From: a virus
Taxonomy: Duplodnaviria; Heunggongvirae; Uroviricota; Caudoviricetes
Virus record (IMG/VR): IMGVR_UViG_2541047930_000003
Strand: one strand, 5' to 3'
Length of the DNA: 51,780 nucleotides
Shown here: one piece after another, positions 16,198 to 25,726 of the stretch
How the letters are laid out: the number at the start of each line of letters is the position of its first letter
Position numbering within the stretch: position 1 is the stretch's first letter
Notes under the pieces: generated by a model
The model's input: only the letters and a program-made list of their open reading frames with translations
The model's database searches: none
What the model was told of the DNA's origin: nothing
Translations under genes and position numbers: made by a program

Positions 16198-16273
<76 letters not shown>

Positions 16274-16276
16274 TAT

Positions 16277-16351
<75 letters not shown>

Positions 16352-20033: not shown

Positions 20034-20825
20034 ATGAGCGAGAAATTGAAGATCGTCTATCGCCCTTTACAAGAACTGTCTCCGTATGCACACAACGCCA
20101 GGACACACAGCCCTGAGCAGGTGGCACAACTGGTAGAAAGCATTAAGCAATTCGGCTGGACTAATCCGGTGCTGATTGATGAAAAGGGCGAAATTATTGC
20201 TGGTCACGGTCGCGTTATGGCGGCTGAAGTGCTCAAAATGGATTCCATTCCGGTCATCGTTCTGTCTGGTTTGATGGATGATCAGAAAAAGGCGTACCGC
20301 CTGGCAGATAATCGCCTGCCGATGAATGCTGGCTGGGATGAAGATCTGTTACGGATGGAGCTGTCGGACCTAATCAATGCTGATTTTGATGTCTCCCTGA
20401 CAGGCTTCAGCCCGACAGAAATTGATGAACTGTTGACGGATGTTTTGCCCGGTACAGAAAATGAGGAGGAGCCGTATACGACGAAAATTGATACGCCTGT
20501 TTATGAGCCGTCGGGCGGTAAACCGGATATCAGTGAACTGTACGACGATACGAAAACTCAGGAGCTGATCAGCCGGATACGTTCGGCGTCTCTTGAGCCT
20601 GATATTGAGAAATTCCTCCTGTGTGCGGCAGAACGTCACACGGTGTTTAATTTCAGCAGAATTGCGGACTATTACGCTCACGCCCCCGCTGAAATTCAGT
20701 GTTTTTTCGAGGAGTCGGCGCTGGTGATCATTGATTATCAGCAGGCTATTGAAAATGGATTTGTCCGGATGACGCAGCGCATGGTGGAGATCATGCATGG
20801 TGGTGAGGAGGAGGAATATGCGTGA
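20034..20825 (+). CDS. ParB-like nuclease (ParB N-terminal) domain protein (263 aa), YnaK-like
   Basis: IAGHGRVMAA resembles ParB box II; ATG at 20034; C-terminal ~150 aa unassigned. Confidence 0.65.
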   Translation: MSEKLKIVYRPLQELSPYAHNARTHSPEQVAQLVESIKQFGWTNPVLIDEKGEIIAGHGRVMAAEVLKMDSIPVIVLSGLMDDQKKAYRLADNRLPMNAGWDEDLLRMELSDLINADFDVSLTGFSPTEIDELLTDVLPGTENEEEPYTTKIDTPVYEPSGGKPDISELYDDTKTQELISRIRSASLEPDIEKFLLCAAERHTVFNFSRIADYYAHAPAEIQCFFEESALVIIDYQQAIENGFVRMTQRMVEIMHGGEEEEYA

Positions 20826-21750
20826 TGATTTTTGCGCCTTTATTCTGACTCACGGGCGACCGGACAAAGTTCTGACTTACCGGACGTTGCGTCGTGCTGG
20901 CTATACCGGGAAAATTTTTATCGTTGTTGATGATGAAGATAAGACACGGCATCAGTACATGGCTGAATTTGGTGAACAGGTGCTGGTGTTTTCCAAAGCC
21001 GATATCGCCAGTCGTTTTGACGAAGCCGATAATTTCGGTGACCGCCGCTCAATTTTTTACGCCCGTAATGCCTGTTTCGACCTGGCAAAACTGGTCGGGT
21101 GTAAATACTTCATTCAGCTCGATGATGATTATCACGAGTTCCAGTTTCGGGTGGATCGCAACTATGACCAGGCCTATTTTCCGATAAGGAAACTGGATGC
21201 GATCCTTTCTGAAATGCTGGCGTACTACGAATCAATACCTGCTCTTTCCATCGCTATGTCGCAGGGCGGGGATTTTCTTGGTGACAATGGCGGCCATGCT
21301 TCGTGGGTAAAACGCAAGGCAATGAACAGCTTTATCTGTTCGGTTGACCGACCGTTCTCATTCATGGGGCGCATTAACGAGGATGTGAATACGTACACGA
21401 ATCTCGGTCGCCGTGGTGAATTGTTTATGACGATCGGTGCTGTCCAGTTAGGGCAGAAACAGACGCAGAAAAACAGCGGCGGAATGACCGAGCTGTATCT
21501 GGATTCCGGAACCTACGTTAAAAGTTTTTACTCCGTCATGTATGCGCCGTCGTGCGTAAAAATCTCACTGATGGGAGCCAGCCATAAACGCATTCACCAT
21601 CAGGTCACCTGGAACAACGCTGCAGTAAAAATCCTTCACGAAAAATACAGGAAGAAGACACCCTGCATATCAATAGGGGTGACAAATGATTCCGTATTCG
21701 AAAGTCGAGTCTCTGGCAGCGTGCCGGATGACTGCACAACAAATCGCTGA
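20818..21750 (+). CDS. Hypothetical protein with GT-A glycosyltransferase-like motifs (310 aa)
   Basis: FILTHGRP...IFIVVDDEDKTRH...KYFIQLDDDY resembles GT2 N-terminal strand, acidic patch and DXD motif; no TM helices; GAGGAG RBS; overlaps the ParB-like gene. Confidence 0.4.
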   Translation: MRDDFCAFILTHGRPDKVLTYRTLRRAGYTGKIFIVVDDEDKTRHQYMAEFGEQVLVFSKADIASRFDEADNFGDRRSIFYARNACFDLAKLVGCKYFIQLDDDYHEFQFRVDRNYDQAYFPIRKLDAILSEMLAYYESIPALSIAMSQGGDFLGDNGGHASWVKRKAMNSFICSVDRPFSFMGRINEDVNTYTNLGRRGELFMTIGAVQLGQKQTQKNSGGMTELYLDSGTYVKSFYSVMYAPSCVKISLMGASHKRIHHQVTWNNAAVKILHEKYRKKTPCISIGVTNDSVFESRVSGSVPDDCTTNR

Positions 21751-21937
21751 CGTTCTGGATGTTGATCTGAACCGACTGAAAGAAAATCGGGAAGCAATGA
21801 CAGATTTTTATGCGGCCATCCGTAAGGGCAGAGCGAAAGGTGAAGCCGAGTTACGGGCGGCATTGTTTAAGCTTGCCAGAAAAGGGGATGCCTTTGCTCT
21901 GCGCGAACTACTCAGGGTGGATAAAAATCAGGACTAA
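21728..21937 (+). CDS. Small hypothetical protein (69 aa) immediately upstream of terminase small subunit
   Basis: Met15 of ORF 21686..21937; helical, basic. Confidence 0.35.
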   Translation: MTAQQIADVLDVDLNRLKENREAMTDFYAAIRKGRAKGEAELRAALFKLARKGDAFALRELLRVDKNQD

Positions 21938-21940
21938 CTG

Positions 21941-23035
21941 ATGAGCAGACCGGACTGGGGGGCGTTGCAGCAGGAGTATATTGCTGAATACACCCGCTCC
22001 GGTATATCTCCGGTGGCATGGTGTGAAGCAAGGGGACTGAATTACGCAACAGCCCGTCGTTACATCAAAAAACCTCCGAAAAATGCGCAGACAGAAATGC
22101 GCAAAACTGCGCAAAAAAGTGCGCAGAAAAAATCTGCGCAGACTGCACAAAAGCGGAACGAAAAATCTCAGGAAAAAAAGCCAGTATTCGATGCGGGCCT
22201 GAATGAGGGCGACGCGGAGGAATTTTCGTTCTGTCCCGATGAATTCGGCATTTCTGACCAGCAGGCTAAGTTTGCGATGCTTGTTGCTCAGGGGAAAAAG
22301 CCGACAGAGGCGTACCGACTAGCCGGTTATGAGGGGCAAGGTGCGACAGCTAACAGCAACGCCAGTCGTATGCTTAGAAATGCCAGGGTTTTTCGCGCTA
22401 TCAGCTACTTCCGCAATCAGTACCAGAAACGCTATACCGCAGACCTGGATTTACTGGTGAGTCAGTTGATGGCCATTGTCCTGGCCGACCCCAATCAGCT
22501 TGCACAATTTCGCCGTGTTAACTGCCGTTATTGCTGGGGCGAGAATCATCTCTACCAGTGGCGCGATATAGCAGAATTCGACAAGGCAGCGGCGCAGGCT
22601 TCCAGAGATGGCAAACCCGAACCGGAATATGGAGGCCTCGGCTTTGTTGATAACGCCATACCCAATCCGGACTGCCCGAAGTGCTGCGGTGAGGGAACGG
22701 GACAGCTTTATATGGCTGATACCACTCTGCTTGATGGGGATGCGCGGCAATTATATGCAGGGGCAAAACTCGGAAAATTCGGCGTTGAGATCCTGCTGGA
22801 GGATAAGGCTGCCGCCCGGCGTGAATTGTTGCGTTTGCTTTCTGCTGGTGGGGCTTTATGTGCAGATAAGCGGCTACAGGAACTGGAAATTGAACGGCGC
22901 AGAATGGAAAACCAGAAGCTGCGCAAAGAGATCGAAACGGTGGAAGATAATGAACATCCCCAGCCTGTGGCGATCAATATTAATGTGGTTGATGCCAGAG
23001 TAAGGAGTGATGAAGATGATCTCTCCGACGCTTAA
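21941..23035 (+). CDS. Terminase small subunit (364 aa) with N-terminal HTH and C-terminal Cys-rich zinc-ribbon-like region
   Basis: GLNYATARRYIKK HTH typical of TerS; CxxC pairs (CRYCWGE, CPKCCGE); directly upstream of large terminase. Confidence 0.7.
   Translation: MSRPDWGALQQEYIAEYTRSGISPVAWCEARGLNYATARRYIKKPPKNAQTEMRKTAQKSAQKKSAQTAQKRNEKSQEKKPVFDAGLNEGDAEEFSFCPDEFGISDQQAKFAMLVAQGKKPTEAYRLAGYEGQGATANSNASRMLRNARVFRAISYFRNQYQKRYTADLDLLVSQLMAIVLADPNQLAQFRRVNCRYCWGENHLYQWRDIAEFDKAAAQASRDGKPEPEYGGLGFVDNAIPNPDCPKCCGEGTGQLYMADTTLLDGDARQLYAGAKLGKFGVEILLEDKAAARRELLRLLSAGGALCADKRLQELEIERRRMENQKLRKEIETVEDNEHPQPVAININVVDARVRSDEDDLSDA
22084..22140 (+). repeat. Five TGCGCA motifs at 10-15 bp spacing inside terS (candidate pac/terminase recognition array)
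   Basis: aaatgcgcagacagaaatgcgcaaaactgcgcaaaaaagtgcgcagaaaaaatctgcgca. Confidence 0.45.
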
Positions 23036-24317
23036 TGTGCCTCAGGCGCGATTTCTTTCAATGCCCCATAAATTTAAAGCCTATATTGCTGGTTTTGGCT
23101 CGGGCAAAACATGGGTTGGGTGTGGCGGCATATGCAAGGGGATTTGGGAGCATCCAGGTATAAATCAGGGATATTTTGCGCCAACGTATCCCCAAATTCG
23201 CGATATTTTTTACCCTACAGTGGAAGAAGTTGCTGCTGACTGGGGATTGAACGTAAAAATTAATGAGGGAAATAAAGAGGTTCACTTTTATTACGGACGC
23301 CAGTATCGGGGAACCACTATCTGCAGATCGATGGAGAAGCCACAAACGATCGTCGGTTTCAAAATTGGTAATGCGCTGGTGGATGAACTGGACATTTTGC
23401 CGAAGGAAAAAGCCAGAACGGCGTGGCGCAAGATAATTGCGCGTATGCGTTATAAGATTGATGGACTTCGCAACGGTATTGACGTTACAACCACGCCGGA
23501 AGGATTCAAATTTGTCTACGAGCAGTTTGTTAAAGCCGTGCGTGAAAAAACAGAGCTGGCCTCACTGTATGGTCTGGTGCAGGCATCTACTTTCGATAAT
23601 GAAAAGAACCTGCCAGCAGATTACATTCCTTCGCTTCTTGAATCATACCCTCCAGAGCTGATTAAAGCCTATCTTCGAGGACAGTTTACTAACCTGACAA
23701 GTGGTACTGTTTACCATCAGTTTGACCGGAAACTGAATAATTGCGAAGAAGTGGAGCAGCCAGGGGAGCCGATTTATATTGGGATGGATTTTAACGTTGG
23801 AAAGATGGCGGGGATCGTCCATGTGCTGCGTTTGGGGCTTCCATGTGCGGTAACTGAAATCATCAATGCCTACGATACGCCGGATATGATCCGCATCATT
23901 AAAGAACGCTTCTGGCTGTATGACGGGAATGATTACCGGAAAGTGAGGGAGATTTATATTTATCCAGATGCTTCCGGAGATTCCAGAAAATCAAGTAACG
24001 CAAGTACGACGGATATAGCCCAGCTTAAGCAGGCTGGTTTTAACGTTGTGGTGAACAGCTCGAACCCGCCAGTAAAAGATCGCGTTAACTCAATGAATGC
24101 AATGTTCTGCAATGCCAATGGTGAGCGTCGCTATAAAGTTAATGTGAAGCGTTGTCCGGTATATGCCGAATCTCTGGAGCAACAGGTCTGGGATGATAAG
24201 GGGGAGCCTGATAAAAAATCTGGCAATGATCACCCGAATGATGCCGGAGGTTATTTCATCGTTAAGCAATTCCCTATTGTCAAACCGACCGGAAGAGTCA
24301 CATCACTTCGGATTTAA
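23016..24317 (+). CDS. Terminase large subunit
   Basis: Walker A GFGSGKTW; 436-aa ORF; start chosen 8 nt after an AGGAG RBS (alternatives 23007 or 23010). Confidence 0.85.
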   Translation: MISPTLNVPQARFLSMPHKFKAYIAGFGSGKTWVGCGGICKGIWEHPGINQGYFAPTYPQIRDIFYPTVEEVAADWGLNVKINEGNKEVHFYYGRQYRGTTICRSMEKPQTIVGFKIGNALVDELDILPKEKARTAWRKIIARMRYKIDGLRNGIDVTTTPEGFKFVYEQFVKAVREKTELASLYGLVQASTFDNEKNLPADYIPSLLESYPPELIKAYLRGQFTNLTSGTVYHQFDRKLNNCEEVEQPGEPIYIGMDFNVGKMAGIVHVLRLGLPCAVTEIINAYDTPDMIRIIKERFWLYDGNDYRKVREIYIYPDASGDSRKSSNASTTDIAQLKQAGFNVVVNSSNPPVKDRVNSMNAMFCNANGERRYKVNVKRCPVYAESLEQQVWDDKGEPDKKSGNDHPNDAGGYFIVKQFPIVKPTGRVTSLRI

Positions 24318-24319
24318 TT

Positions 24320-25726
24320 ATGGCTGATATATCAACACCCAACCTCGACTATAACGATATGCTGGAGGCGTGGGATATTAACGACGCATTGATGGGCGGT
24401 ACGCTTGAAATGCGCAGGCAGGGGGAAAATTATCTCCCCAAATGGCCTAATGAAGATGAAGACGCTTATAAAAAACGCCTGTCTGTGGCTACGCTACTTC
24501 CTGTGTATGAAGAAAGCATCAAACAAAATATTGGGCGCATATTTGCAGAGCCGACAGTATTGAGTGAGGAAACGCCGGAAAAAATCAGGGAATATGCAGA
24601 AAATATCGACATGGAGGGGAGCCGACTGGATGTGTGGGCGCAGCAATTTTTCAGTCTCGCATTTCAGTATGGTGTGGCACATGCGCTGGTGGACTATCCA
24701 CGAACGGATATGAAAGAGATTCGGACAAAAGCCGATGAAAACGCGGCCGGTGGTCGCCCGTACGTTACGATGCTGAATCCACGCCAGGTTATTGGATGGA
24801 AATCGAAAGTTGAAAAAGGGAAAGTTGTTCTCACTGATTTGCGTATAAAAGAGGTCATCATTATTGATGGTGATGATTTCGGGCAGAAGAAGGTGGAGCA
24901 GATCCGCCATATTATGCCCCGTCGAGTTGAAATTTATCGACGCAGCGAAGGTACTAATGGCGAATCTGTCTGGACGCTTCATGAGTCATGGAATACCAGC
25001 CGTGATGATATTCCTCTGGTAACACTGTATACGAAGAAAACAGGGTTTATGCGTGGTACACCGCCATTGCTTAATCTTGGCTTGCTGAATATCAAGCACT
25101 GGCAAAGCCAGAGCGAGCAGGACAATATTCTTCATGTTGCCCGCGTTCCATTGCTGGTGGCCTACGGGCTGGACAGGAATGAAGAACTGACGGTTGGTGC
25201 ATCCACCGCTACGATTTTTGAGGACAGAACAAAAAATGGCCTCGAATATGTTGAACATAGTGGCGCAGCGATAGAATCTGGCGAAACATCACTTGAGAAG
25301 CTGGAAAATCAGATGCGTCATGCCGGCGCTAAACTTCTGCGGGCTGAAAATACATCCACCAAATCTGTTGATCAGACTAATGAAGAGCGGATGCAGGAAC
25401 ACTCGCCGCTTTATACAATGGCGAACTCCCTCGAAGATGCCCTCGATAATATTCTCCAGATAATGGCGGAATGGAGCGGAGAGAGTTGCGGTGGCAATGT
25501 GGATGTGCGCACTGAACTGGATGTATCTGCCCAGGTGTTTGACTCATCCTCCGCGCTGGCTGTTCAGTCATTGCGTCAGGGCGGTGATATACGTCAGATT
25601 GATGCGGTTCGGGTGTTGCAGGCGTTGAAATTTATCGATCAGGATTCCCGTCCAGAGGAAGTGATCGATGAATTAAAAAATCAGAGTGTAATGCTGATGG
25701 AAATCAATGATGCAAACCGTGAATGA
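24320..25726 (+). CDS. Portal protein (468 aa)
   Basis: Size and position directly after large terminase. Confidence 0.75.
   Translation: MADISTPNLDYNDMLEAWDINDALMGGTLEMRRQGENYLPKWPNEDEDAYKKRLSVATLLPVYEESIKQNIGRIFAEPTVLSEETPEKIREYAENIDMEGSRLDVWAQQFFSLAFQYGVAHALVDYPRTDMKEIRTKADENAAGGRPYVTMLNPRQVIGWKSKVEKGKVVLTDLRIKEVIIIDGDDFGQKKVEQIRHIMPRRVEIYRRSEGTNGESVWTLHESWNTSRDDIPLVTLYTKKTGFMRGTPPLLNLGLLNIKHWQSQSEQDNILHVARVPLLVAYGLDRNEELTVGASTATIFEDRTKNGLEYVEHSGAAIESGETSLEKLENQMRHAGAKLLRAENTSTKSVDQTNEERMQEHSPLYTMANSLEDALDNILQIMAEWSGESCGGNVDVRTELDVSAQVFDSSSALAVQSLRQGGDIRQIDAVRVLQALKFIDQDSRPEEVIDELKNQSVMLMEINDANRE

Follow-up and report, generated by a model that had tools for sequence, protein, structure and literature searches.

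A hexamer array inside the small-terminase gene of a Rac-type prophage as a candidate packaging site

How small terminases recognise the DNA of the packaging (pac) site is a long-standing open problem. The question is raised here by terS, the small-terminase gene in a stretch of 51,780 nucleotides (IMG/VR record IMGVR_UViG_2541047930_000003; hereafter the window, meaning the whole stretch analysed), in which the hexamer TGCGCA is repeated directly after the codons for a predicted N-terminal helix-turn-helix (HTH) domain. The window is an intact Rac-type lambdoid Escherichia coli prophage with recE/recT, kilR, trkG and a ParB-like gene followed by packaging and morphogenesis genes. An initial annotation had suggested that the repeats may be the packaging recognition site, a proposal with which every comparative test we ran agrees. 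The array is probably the recognition part of the pac site of this prophage, read by the N-terminal HTH domain of TerS. This reading is supported because the motif persists at synonymous sites and in different reading frames, because its identity tracks a residue in the predicted recognition helix of the adjacent domain, because profile comparison shows this domain to be a homologue of the N-terminal part of PacA from P1, a phage with an experimentally proven pac site of the same layout, and because an array is found at the same place in TerS genes that are 36-42% identical or share the N-domain alone.

The TGCGCA array and its setting in terS

The product of terS matches Pfam Terminase_2 (PF03592; 35.1 bits against a gathering cutoff of 26.1, residues 122-321) and PHROG 51 'terminase small subunit' (E = 1.7e-76), and its relatives are annotated as 'terminase small subunit'. 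The protein has a mosaic build, in which an N-terminal module is joined to a Terminase_2 body that carries a CxxC...CxxCC insert, and this in turn to a C-terminal tail. The parts of the gene are located as follows, with no strand assigned to the motifs or to the A-rich setting.

21941-23035, plus strand: terS, small terminase of 364 residues (Pfam Terminase_2 and PHROG 51)
21941-22072, plus strand: predicted N-terminal three-helix (HTH) domain, codons 1-44, proposed reader of the array
22043-22063, plus strand: predicted recognition helix YATARRY, codons 35-41
22055-22057, plus strand: codon of Arg39, the residue that covaries with the motif
22067-22179: A-rich setting around the array, with eight A-tracts (4-7 bases each)
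22084-22089: TGCGCA copy 1, aaT GCG CAg (N-A-Q)
22098-22103: TGCGCA copy 2, in another frame, aTG CGC Aaa (M-R-K)
22108-22113: TGCGCA copy 3, acT GCG CAa (T-A-Q)
22120-22125: TGCGCA copy 4, agT GCG CAg (S-A-Q)
22135-22140: TGCGCA copy 5, tcT GCG CAg (S-A-Q)
22144-22149: degenerate sixth copy, TGCACA, with one mismatch
21941-22234, plus strand: exchangeable N-module (HTH domain, array and acidic linker), residues 1-98
22304-22903, plus strand: canonical Terminase_2 region, residues 122-321

As initially annotated, the five exact copies are present at 22084-22140 inside the terS open reading frame (ORF), and together with the degenerate copy they occupy 66 bp of the gene. Of 26 close E. coli variants, 9 have an exact TGCGCA at the sixth site. 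Over its full length the window shows no enrichment of the hexamer (24 copies versus 21.5 expected), and the remaining 19 copies are scattered over 51.7 kb, so that the array is the sole cluster of two or more copies within 60 bp in the 51.8-kb window. At the background rate, chance would produce about 1e-7 clusters of this kind, and when the surrounding A-rich 130 bp were shuffled 200,000 times, the maximum was 2 copies. The spacings between the five copies are 14, 10, 12 and 15 bp. With a mean of 12.75 bp in this array and a family median of 12 bp, as compared to 10.5 bp, their description as near-helical holds only loosely. The surroundings contain 60 A in 130 bases, and an intrinsic bend of the array DNA is possible.

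Four of the copies are read as nnT-GCG-CAr (x-Ala-Gln) while copy 2 is read as aTG-CGC-Aaa (Met-Arg-Lys), which places the motif in two frames within the window and makes the repeat one of DNA and not of peptide. Thus, the AQK-rich peptide pointed out in the initial annotation is encoded (KNAQTEMRKTAQKSAQKKSAQTAQK), but it is not a repeat at the peptide level. To quantify the excess of motifs, we used a synonymous null in which the peptide was fixed and codons were drawn 200,000 times from the usage of neighbouring window genes. The mean was 0.71 copies, and five or more copies were obtained in 6 of the draws (P = 3e-5).

For the N-terminal domain, an AlphaFold2 model from the single sequence of residues 1-51 contained helices at residues 6-20, 24-31 and 35-41, with a predicted confidence (pLDDT) of 81 overall and about 90 for residues 11-40. 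The top 50 Foldseek matches to this model were all HTH DNA-binding domains with template-modelling scores of about 0.6, none of them significant (best E 0.9), and a weak match to the HTH of IS66 TnpA (E = 5.9e-5) fell under the cutoff. The first TGCGCA copy begins 11 nt after codon 44, the last codon of the domain.

Arrays and recognition helices in relatives and in P1

TerS genes that are just 36-42% identical to that of the window, in Klebsiella prophages, Yersinia vB_YenM phages and E. coli phage PHB10, hold an array at the same place, and the Klebsiella genes contain six TGCGCA copies in all three frames (T-A-Q, L-R-T and K-C-A-E). Arrays directly after the domain were also found in TerS that share the first 45 residues alone with the window, as in the phages RothC (Klebsiella), Pmp11 (Pasteurella) and phiARM81mr (Aeromonas). 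Using an alignment of the N-domain, we retrieved 160 loci from viral and genome collections, corresponding to 135 distinct gene starts. These span more than 30 genera and range from Escherichia to Aeromonas, Vibrio and Pasteurella. Within 200 bp downstream of the domain, nearly all of them contained 3-10 copies of the motif, with A-rich flanks (consensus roughly AAAcTGCGCArA) and spacings of commonly 7, 9, 10, 12, 14, 15 and 16 bp. Two motif clusters were present in some relatives (Pmp11, Proteus and Providencia). The reverse test started from arrays found by DNA pattern alone in viral contigs, 73 out of 120 of which adjoin an N-domain. The first motif was located -2 to +14 nt from the domain end in 70 of these 73, and the arrays, of 4-10 copies, followed the domain, while no locus had more than a single stray copy before it (5 of 73 loci). 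Hence, the position of the array is locked to the HTH-coding segment. The module was identified in 883 of 5426 complete E. coli genomes (16%), in 220 phage records, among them those of Shiga toxin (Stx) phages, and in at least 585 viral contigs.

The genes upstream of terS differ among the array-bearing relatives and the same N-module occurs on TerS bodies of three kinds; what the array accompanies is the N-domain, and not the neighbouring genes or the TerS body. For phage pPE4 (PP818812), the TerS protein is 77% identical over residues 91-335 and has an unrelated N-terminal HTH. The DNA homology begins at query position 636, which is window position 22235, and the repeat in the pPE4 linker is another one, GTTTCCAC/GTGGAAAC. 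To judge from this case, an N-terminal HTH with its own site array may be a general, swappable design of TerS proteins. As a scan with the pPE4-type N-domain gave three loci only, an extension of this design to other types of HTH is no more than a lead.

Some further loci concern the same design. In pPE4 (L011, 1231-1500; also L295), GTTTCCAC occurs twice and its inverse GTGGAAA(C) two or three times. A GC-richer viral contig (L177) has a TerS-like ORF at 1982-2584 with a pPE4-like HTH and an array at 2121-2190, where the linker holds 5-6 TGCGCA copies upstream of a 563-residue ORF of TerL size, and a distant relative (L297, ~1100-1160) has four copies of CTAAGC after an HTH. The arrays of L177 and L297 are leads to candidate further specificity classes.

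The relationship between array and domain can also be followed where the domain was lost. In Rac-SA53 (KU052037; L002, 1417-2445) a deletion has fused terS to gene O (gpO) and removed the HTH, and three of the five motifs are mutated (TGCGCA twice, then TTCGCA, TGCGCT and TGCCCA). We count this as probable decay of the array upon loss of its function, accompanying the loss of the HTH. The genes for heat-labile enterotoxin IIa, eltIIaA and eltIIaB, are located directly upstream of the fused terS. At six other loci (L064, L081, L112, L116, L126 and L158) terS is frameshifted or truncated in or right after the array, adjoining runs of A6-A9, with the hexamers kept; these could be sequencing errors, pseudogenes or slippage-prone sites.

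Applied to 65 non-redundant genes of the family, the synonymous test gave 346 observed motifs against 35.4 expected from the peptides, and the excess had P < 0.01 in 63 of the 65 genes. Across the family TGCGCA starts at codon position 3 in 493 cases, at position 2 in 126 and at position 1 in 28. Selection acts on the hexamer at the DNA level, and the AQK-rich peptide of the linker follows from the DNA site as a by-product, without being selected itself.

The identity of the motif covaries with residue 39, located in the third predicted helix of the N-domain. All 118 arrays next to domains with Arg39 (ATARRYIK) are of TGCGCA, and all 13 next to domains with Lys39 (TAKRYIK) are of TGCGAA/TTCGCA. 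The arrays are nearly pure, with 641 TGCGCA versus 9 TGCGAA in the R-class and 70 K-type motifs versus 4 in the K-class. K-class domains do not form a separate lineage, since over residues 1-35 they are up to 100% identical to their nearest R-class domains (L108/L098 and L126/L102), and both classes occur on all three TerS body types. The motif word changes in concert with the recognition helix.

A third combination was observed on a divergent scaffold, the N-domain of the Stx phages 933W and Sakai, which is about 40% identical to that of the window. Here the helix is NTARTRIKM (ARTR), followed by four or five copies of (C/T)GATCATRA at exactly 12 bp that encode IDHEIDHKTDHEIDHD (933W locus L172, AF125520, 1621-1680; also L300-L338). 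Sister genes on the same scaffold with the helix TARRYIKL (ARRY) have TGCGCA arrays. The GATCATRA array is a predicted pac site of Stx phages, possibly one controlled by methylation. Each copy holds a Dam site (GATC), as in the pac site of P1, and one or two TGCGCA are located about 60 bp further downstream of the array in these 933W-type terS genes.

The closest precedent for this arrangement is found in phage P1. A profile of 24 N-domain sequences aligned with residues 1-60 of PacA matched residues 3-40 by hhalign (probability 92.4%, E = 5.2e-7, 38 columns), and pairwise BLASTP gave E = 0.002 with 30% identity over 43 residues. By these comparisons, the N-terminal HTH domain is homologous to the N-terminus of PacA. 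The pac site of P1 is a segment of 161 bp inside pacA with seven TGATCA/G hexamers that contain Dam sites, and synonymous mutation of the hexamers reduced packaging about 9-fold (PMC10028697). The TGATCR hexamers start at pacA nucleotides 194, 201, 213 and 228 (block 194-233) and 324, 336 and 347 (block 324-352), and the two blocks flank the annotated cleavage positions (pacA nt ~275-285) and a site for integration host factor (IHF).

As in the window, the P1 site is thus an array of hexamers inside the small-terminase gene, downstream of homologous HTH codons. Hexamers of the palindromic form TG..CA occur in both systems, the hexamers are used in more than one reading frame in P1 too, and the peptide motifs are by-products there also (IDH/NDQ/GDH). 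Spacings are irregular in both, 7, 12, 15 and 12, 11 in P1 compared with 14, 10, 12, 15 in the window. The two systems differ in that P1 has two clusters (HEX4 and HEX3), read by the PacA/PacB pacase, that flank the cut, an IHF site and control by Dam (GATC), whereas the window has a single cluster. Moreover, the P1 array starts about 70 nt after the HTH codons, as compared to 11 nt in the window and -2 to +14 nt in most relatives.

Packaging and alternative roles of the array

The genes that follow terS are arranged as follows.

23007-24317, plus strand: terL, large terminase with Terminase_6N and an RNaseH-like nuclease, directly downstream of terS; predicted to cut the DNA and power packaging
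24320-25726, plus strand: portal protein (DUF4055)

TerL carries Terminase_6N/6C, and its relatives, at 40-55% identity, are in Jersey-, Kaguna- and HK578-type siphophages, which we take to be headful packagers. A mechanism can be proposed in which TerS, to judge from the Terminase_2 family, would oligomerise via its body, while the N-terminal HTH domains on their flexible linkers would each read one TGCGCA, with residue 39 of the recognition helix discriminating position 5 of the hexamer, as the covariation implies. Multivalent binding to sites 9-15 bp apart in A-rich, probably bendable DNA would mark the concatemer, and binding to the array would nucleate assembly of the terminase. By analogy with P1 and from the type of TerL, TerL would then be recruited and cut nearby, and headful packaging would proceed in the direction from terS to terL.

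Several observations weigh against the packaging-site reading. In the window, about 20 nt separate the third helix from the array, and part of the covariation between helix and motif could be due to linkage; we favour functional coupling because every copy changes in concert. The HTH fold is based on a single-sequence model and non-significant fold matches. Within E. coli, copies 2 and 4 vary (TGTGCA at copy 2 in 5 of 26 variants, and the last base of copy 4 in 6 of 26), and polymorphism at motif sites, 4 of 30, is lower than the 25 of 102 at linker sites as a trend that does not reach significance (p = 0.22). Of the P1 features, a second cluster was searched for within 500 bp on either side, where there were only scattered hexamers with one mismatch, a consensus scan for IHF sites (WATCAR-N4-TTR, both strands, 21900-22500) gave no match, and GATC, which is present in the 933W-class arrays, is absent from the TGCGCA array of the window. 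No similarity was detected between TerL and PacB, or between TerS and PacA beyond the N-domain. The helix of P1 is of the ARRY type, yet its word is TGATCA, and the residue-to-base code is therefore not transferable across distant scaffolds. In the literature, we found no end mapping, coverage peak or binding assay for any member of the family, and the sole mapped pac site of an E. coli prophage that we found, in prophage Gally of strain LF82, belongs to a different TerS family. Gally had been considered as a mapped test case with its coverage peak at 1,019,224 in terS, and was rejected for this reason; its TerS of 140 residues is Sf6-like, its TerL is of the PBSX type and it is without a hexamer array.

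What the comparative evidence demonstrates is a partnership between protein and DNA, not packaging as such, and the HTH might bind the array for another purpose, such as autoregulation of terS and terL or a transcription roadblock, with the true pac site elsewhere. The site is inside the very gene that would be regulated, and a different site could be recognised by the canonical Terminase_2 HTH that the TerS body has in addition. Even so, we consider such a role unlikely, given that the homologous domain and array arrangement in P1 is a proven pac site and that the specificity modules are swapped together with the terminase genes, as expected of packaging specificity. Furthermore, a promoter scan gave no promoter-like site nearby, and we know of no precedent for a TerS autoregulatory operator. 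A second alternative is that secondary structure is the selected feature, with hairpins in mRNA or single-stranded DNA acting on translation, mRNA stability or as antisense terminators. The non-palindromic direct-repeat arrays are equally conserved without excess structure (z of about 0 for Pmp11, -0.9 for 933W and 0 to -1.4 for several K-class arrays), which makes this very improbable despite the folding of the RNA from 22070-22165 at -31.7 kcal/mol (z = -5.5), a mean z of -4.7 for R-class arrays and -6.0 for P1 pac, and six terminator-like patterns of a hairpin plus T-run on the minus strand versus 1.3 expected. Spacing and copy number vary freely so that no particular RNA helix is conserved, the array RNA has no match in Rfam, and the covariation with a protein residue would be left unexplained. 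We judge the RNA structure to be a by-product, because TGCGCA is palindromic and neighbouring copies can pair.

Two other alternatives treat the motif as incidental or neutral. That the region is a low-complexity K/A/Q-rich flexible linker, grown by duplication of a peptide repeat with the DNA motif as an incidental result, agrees with the repetitive AQK-rich peptide encoded between two folded domains and with the imperfect repeats of 10, 12 and 36 bp reported by Tandem Repeats Finder. It is scarcely credible when a single hexamer is translated as x-A-Q, [VML]-R-x or C-A according to which of the three frames it occupies, at a ten-fold excess over the synonymous expectation, and when the peptides differ widely by class (AQKSAQ, NCETNCES, IDHEIDH) with the DNA motif constant per class and the motifs persist in frameshifted genes. 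Neutral slippage repeats, or microhomology at a mosaic junction that promotes exchange of terminase modules, would account for the range in copy number from 3 to 10, for the recombination joint at the boundary of the N-module and for the apparent remnant of another terS family just upstream. However, the spacers vary in length and sequence and the hexamers are exact, whereas slippage would produce the reverse. If neutral, the repeats would neither have remained so pure nor follow a helix residue through more than 30 genera, and the motifs decay upon deletion of the HTH. We hold this explanation to be highly unlikely.

Between 22084 and 22151, the palindromic hexamers and A-runs generate four overlapping hairpin-plus-T-run patterns on the minus strand. 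We judge these terminator-like patterns to be a by-product too; they could block antisense transcription.

Among other packaging systems, SPP1 and SF6 have a small terminase, G1P, of the same Pfam family as the TerS body of the window. Their pac site (pacL-pacC-pacR) overlaps the 5' part of terS and consists of A-rich bendable DNA. The SPP1 TerS has multiple contact points at pac, and binds in vitro weakly and with little sequence specificity (PMC9611059). In SPP1, TerS uses its canonical N-terminal HTH, whereas the TerS of the window has an extra HTH before the Terminase_2 region and sites that are exact hexamers. P22 and Sf6 are headful phages with the packaging signal within the small-terminase gene (gene 3 and gene 1, respectively), as in the window, but the signal is a single asymmetric, non-repeated site of 22 bp and the TerS family is unrelated. 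The comparison to P22 and SPP1 made in the initial annotation concerns the location of the site inside terS; P1 pac is the nearer parallel. In lambda, cosB contains the sites R1-R3 for the winged HTH of gpNu1 and the IHF site I1, and since these adjoin the gene for the small terminase, specificity and sites are inherited together. Lambda differs from the window in its cohesive-end packaging, in that the sites are upstream of the gene, in an unrelated type of HTH and in its requirement for IHF.

Reach of the module and neighbouring genes

Packaging sites inside terS and the hexamer array of P1 were already known. In the searchable literature, we did not find descriptions of the array module on Terminase_2 and other TerS bodies, of the breadth of the module or of the covariation between helix and motif. 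A review of TerS proteins from 2022 mentions neither PacA nor repeat arrays; it describes the binding of TerS to pac as weak and in vitro mostly independent of sequence, and calls it 'unclear and controversial' (PMC9611059), and a study from 2026 used the position of terS/terL as a proxy for the pac site (PMC12829572). It is an evenly balanced proposition that the terS genes of many gamma-proteobacterial prophages contain a portable packaging-specificity cassette, composed of recognition helix and array, with a simple rule that links helix to word. The group would comprise the Rac-type phages found in 16% of the complete E. coli genomes, the Stx phages of the 933W/Sakai type and, distantly, P1. 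Because the helix and the array are contiguous within about 100 bp, one recombination event could re-target packaging with the match between protein and site retained.

Should the rule hold, Arg39 would specify TGCGCA, Lys39 TGCGAA and ARTR GATCAT, pac sites as well as the origin and direction of lateral transduction would be predictable from sequence alone, and the DNA site would determine the TerS linker peptide that overlaps it. The family offers exact multi-copy hexamers, an identifiable reading domain and natural swaps in specificity, one of which matches R versus K at a single residue with C versus A at a single base, and the question of recognition is therefore testable with few constructs. 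With a pac site defined by sequence, it would be settled where headful and lateral transduction from these prophages start and in which direction they run, and the site would guide the design of packaging-competent or packaging-dead vectors, as has been done for P1 (PMC10028697).

Other features of TerS are noted here. The best 120 TerS homologues listed were all 82-99% identical. Searches of the PDB gave a single weak match for TerS, to the small terminase of Pam5 (E = 0.24), and no sequence match for TerL. Residues 195-250 (window 22523-22690) contain the CxxC...CxxCC pattern (CRYCW, CPKCC; CxxC at residue 195 and CxxCC at residue 245), a Zn-ribbon-like insertion within the Terminase_2 region that is missing from shorter Terminase_2 relatives. 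In many TerS of E. coli and Salmonella (P0047, P0055 and P0111), the N-module and body of the window are combined with a pPE4-type C-terminal tail (…IKLIMATKGSSAGG…PMPGVDNVD), the swapped region corresponding to window ~22840-23035. This implies that the tail is a third exchangeable module, which presumably contacts TerL.

Directly upstream of terS is an ORF of 83 residues (21686-21937, plus strand) that matches phrog_309, a different small-terminase family, at E = 8e-23 and covers profile positions 145-218 of 319. It looks like what is left of a displaced terS, or else like a small accessory protein that binds DNA. Further upstream, a gene for a protein with a ParB/Srx-N domain (20034-20825, plus strand) overlaps one for a TET-associated glycosyltransferase-like protein (20797-21750, plus strand; Pfam TAGT, E = 7e-36; phrog_842 'beta-glucosyl-HMC-alpha-glucosyltransferase'), and this pair upstream of the packaging genes may be a putative DNA-modification module. 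A connection between the array and these two genes was considered and rejected, because array-bearing relatives have other upstream genes. The prophage also contains genes for tRNA-Thr(TGT) and tRNA-Gly(TCC) at 16198-16351 on the plus strand, upstream of the lysis genes, and a related prophage in E. coli 042 also encodes a QueH-like epoxyqueuosine reductase.

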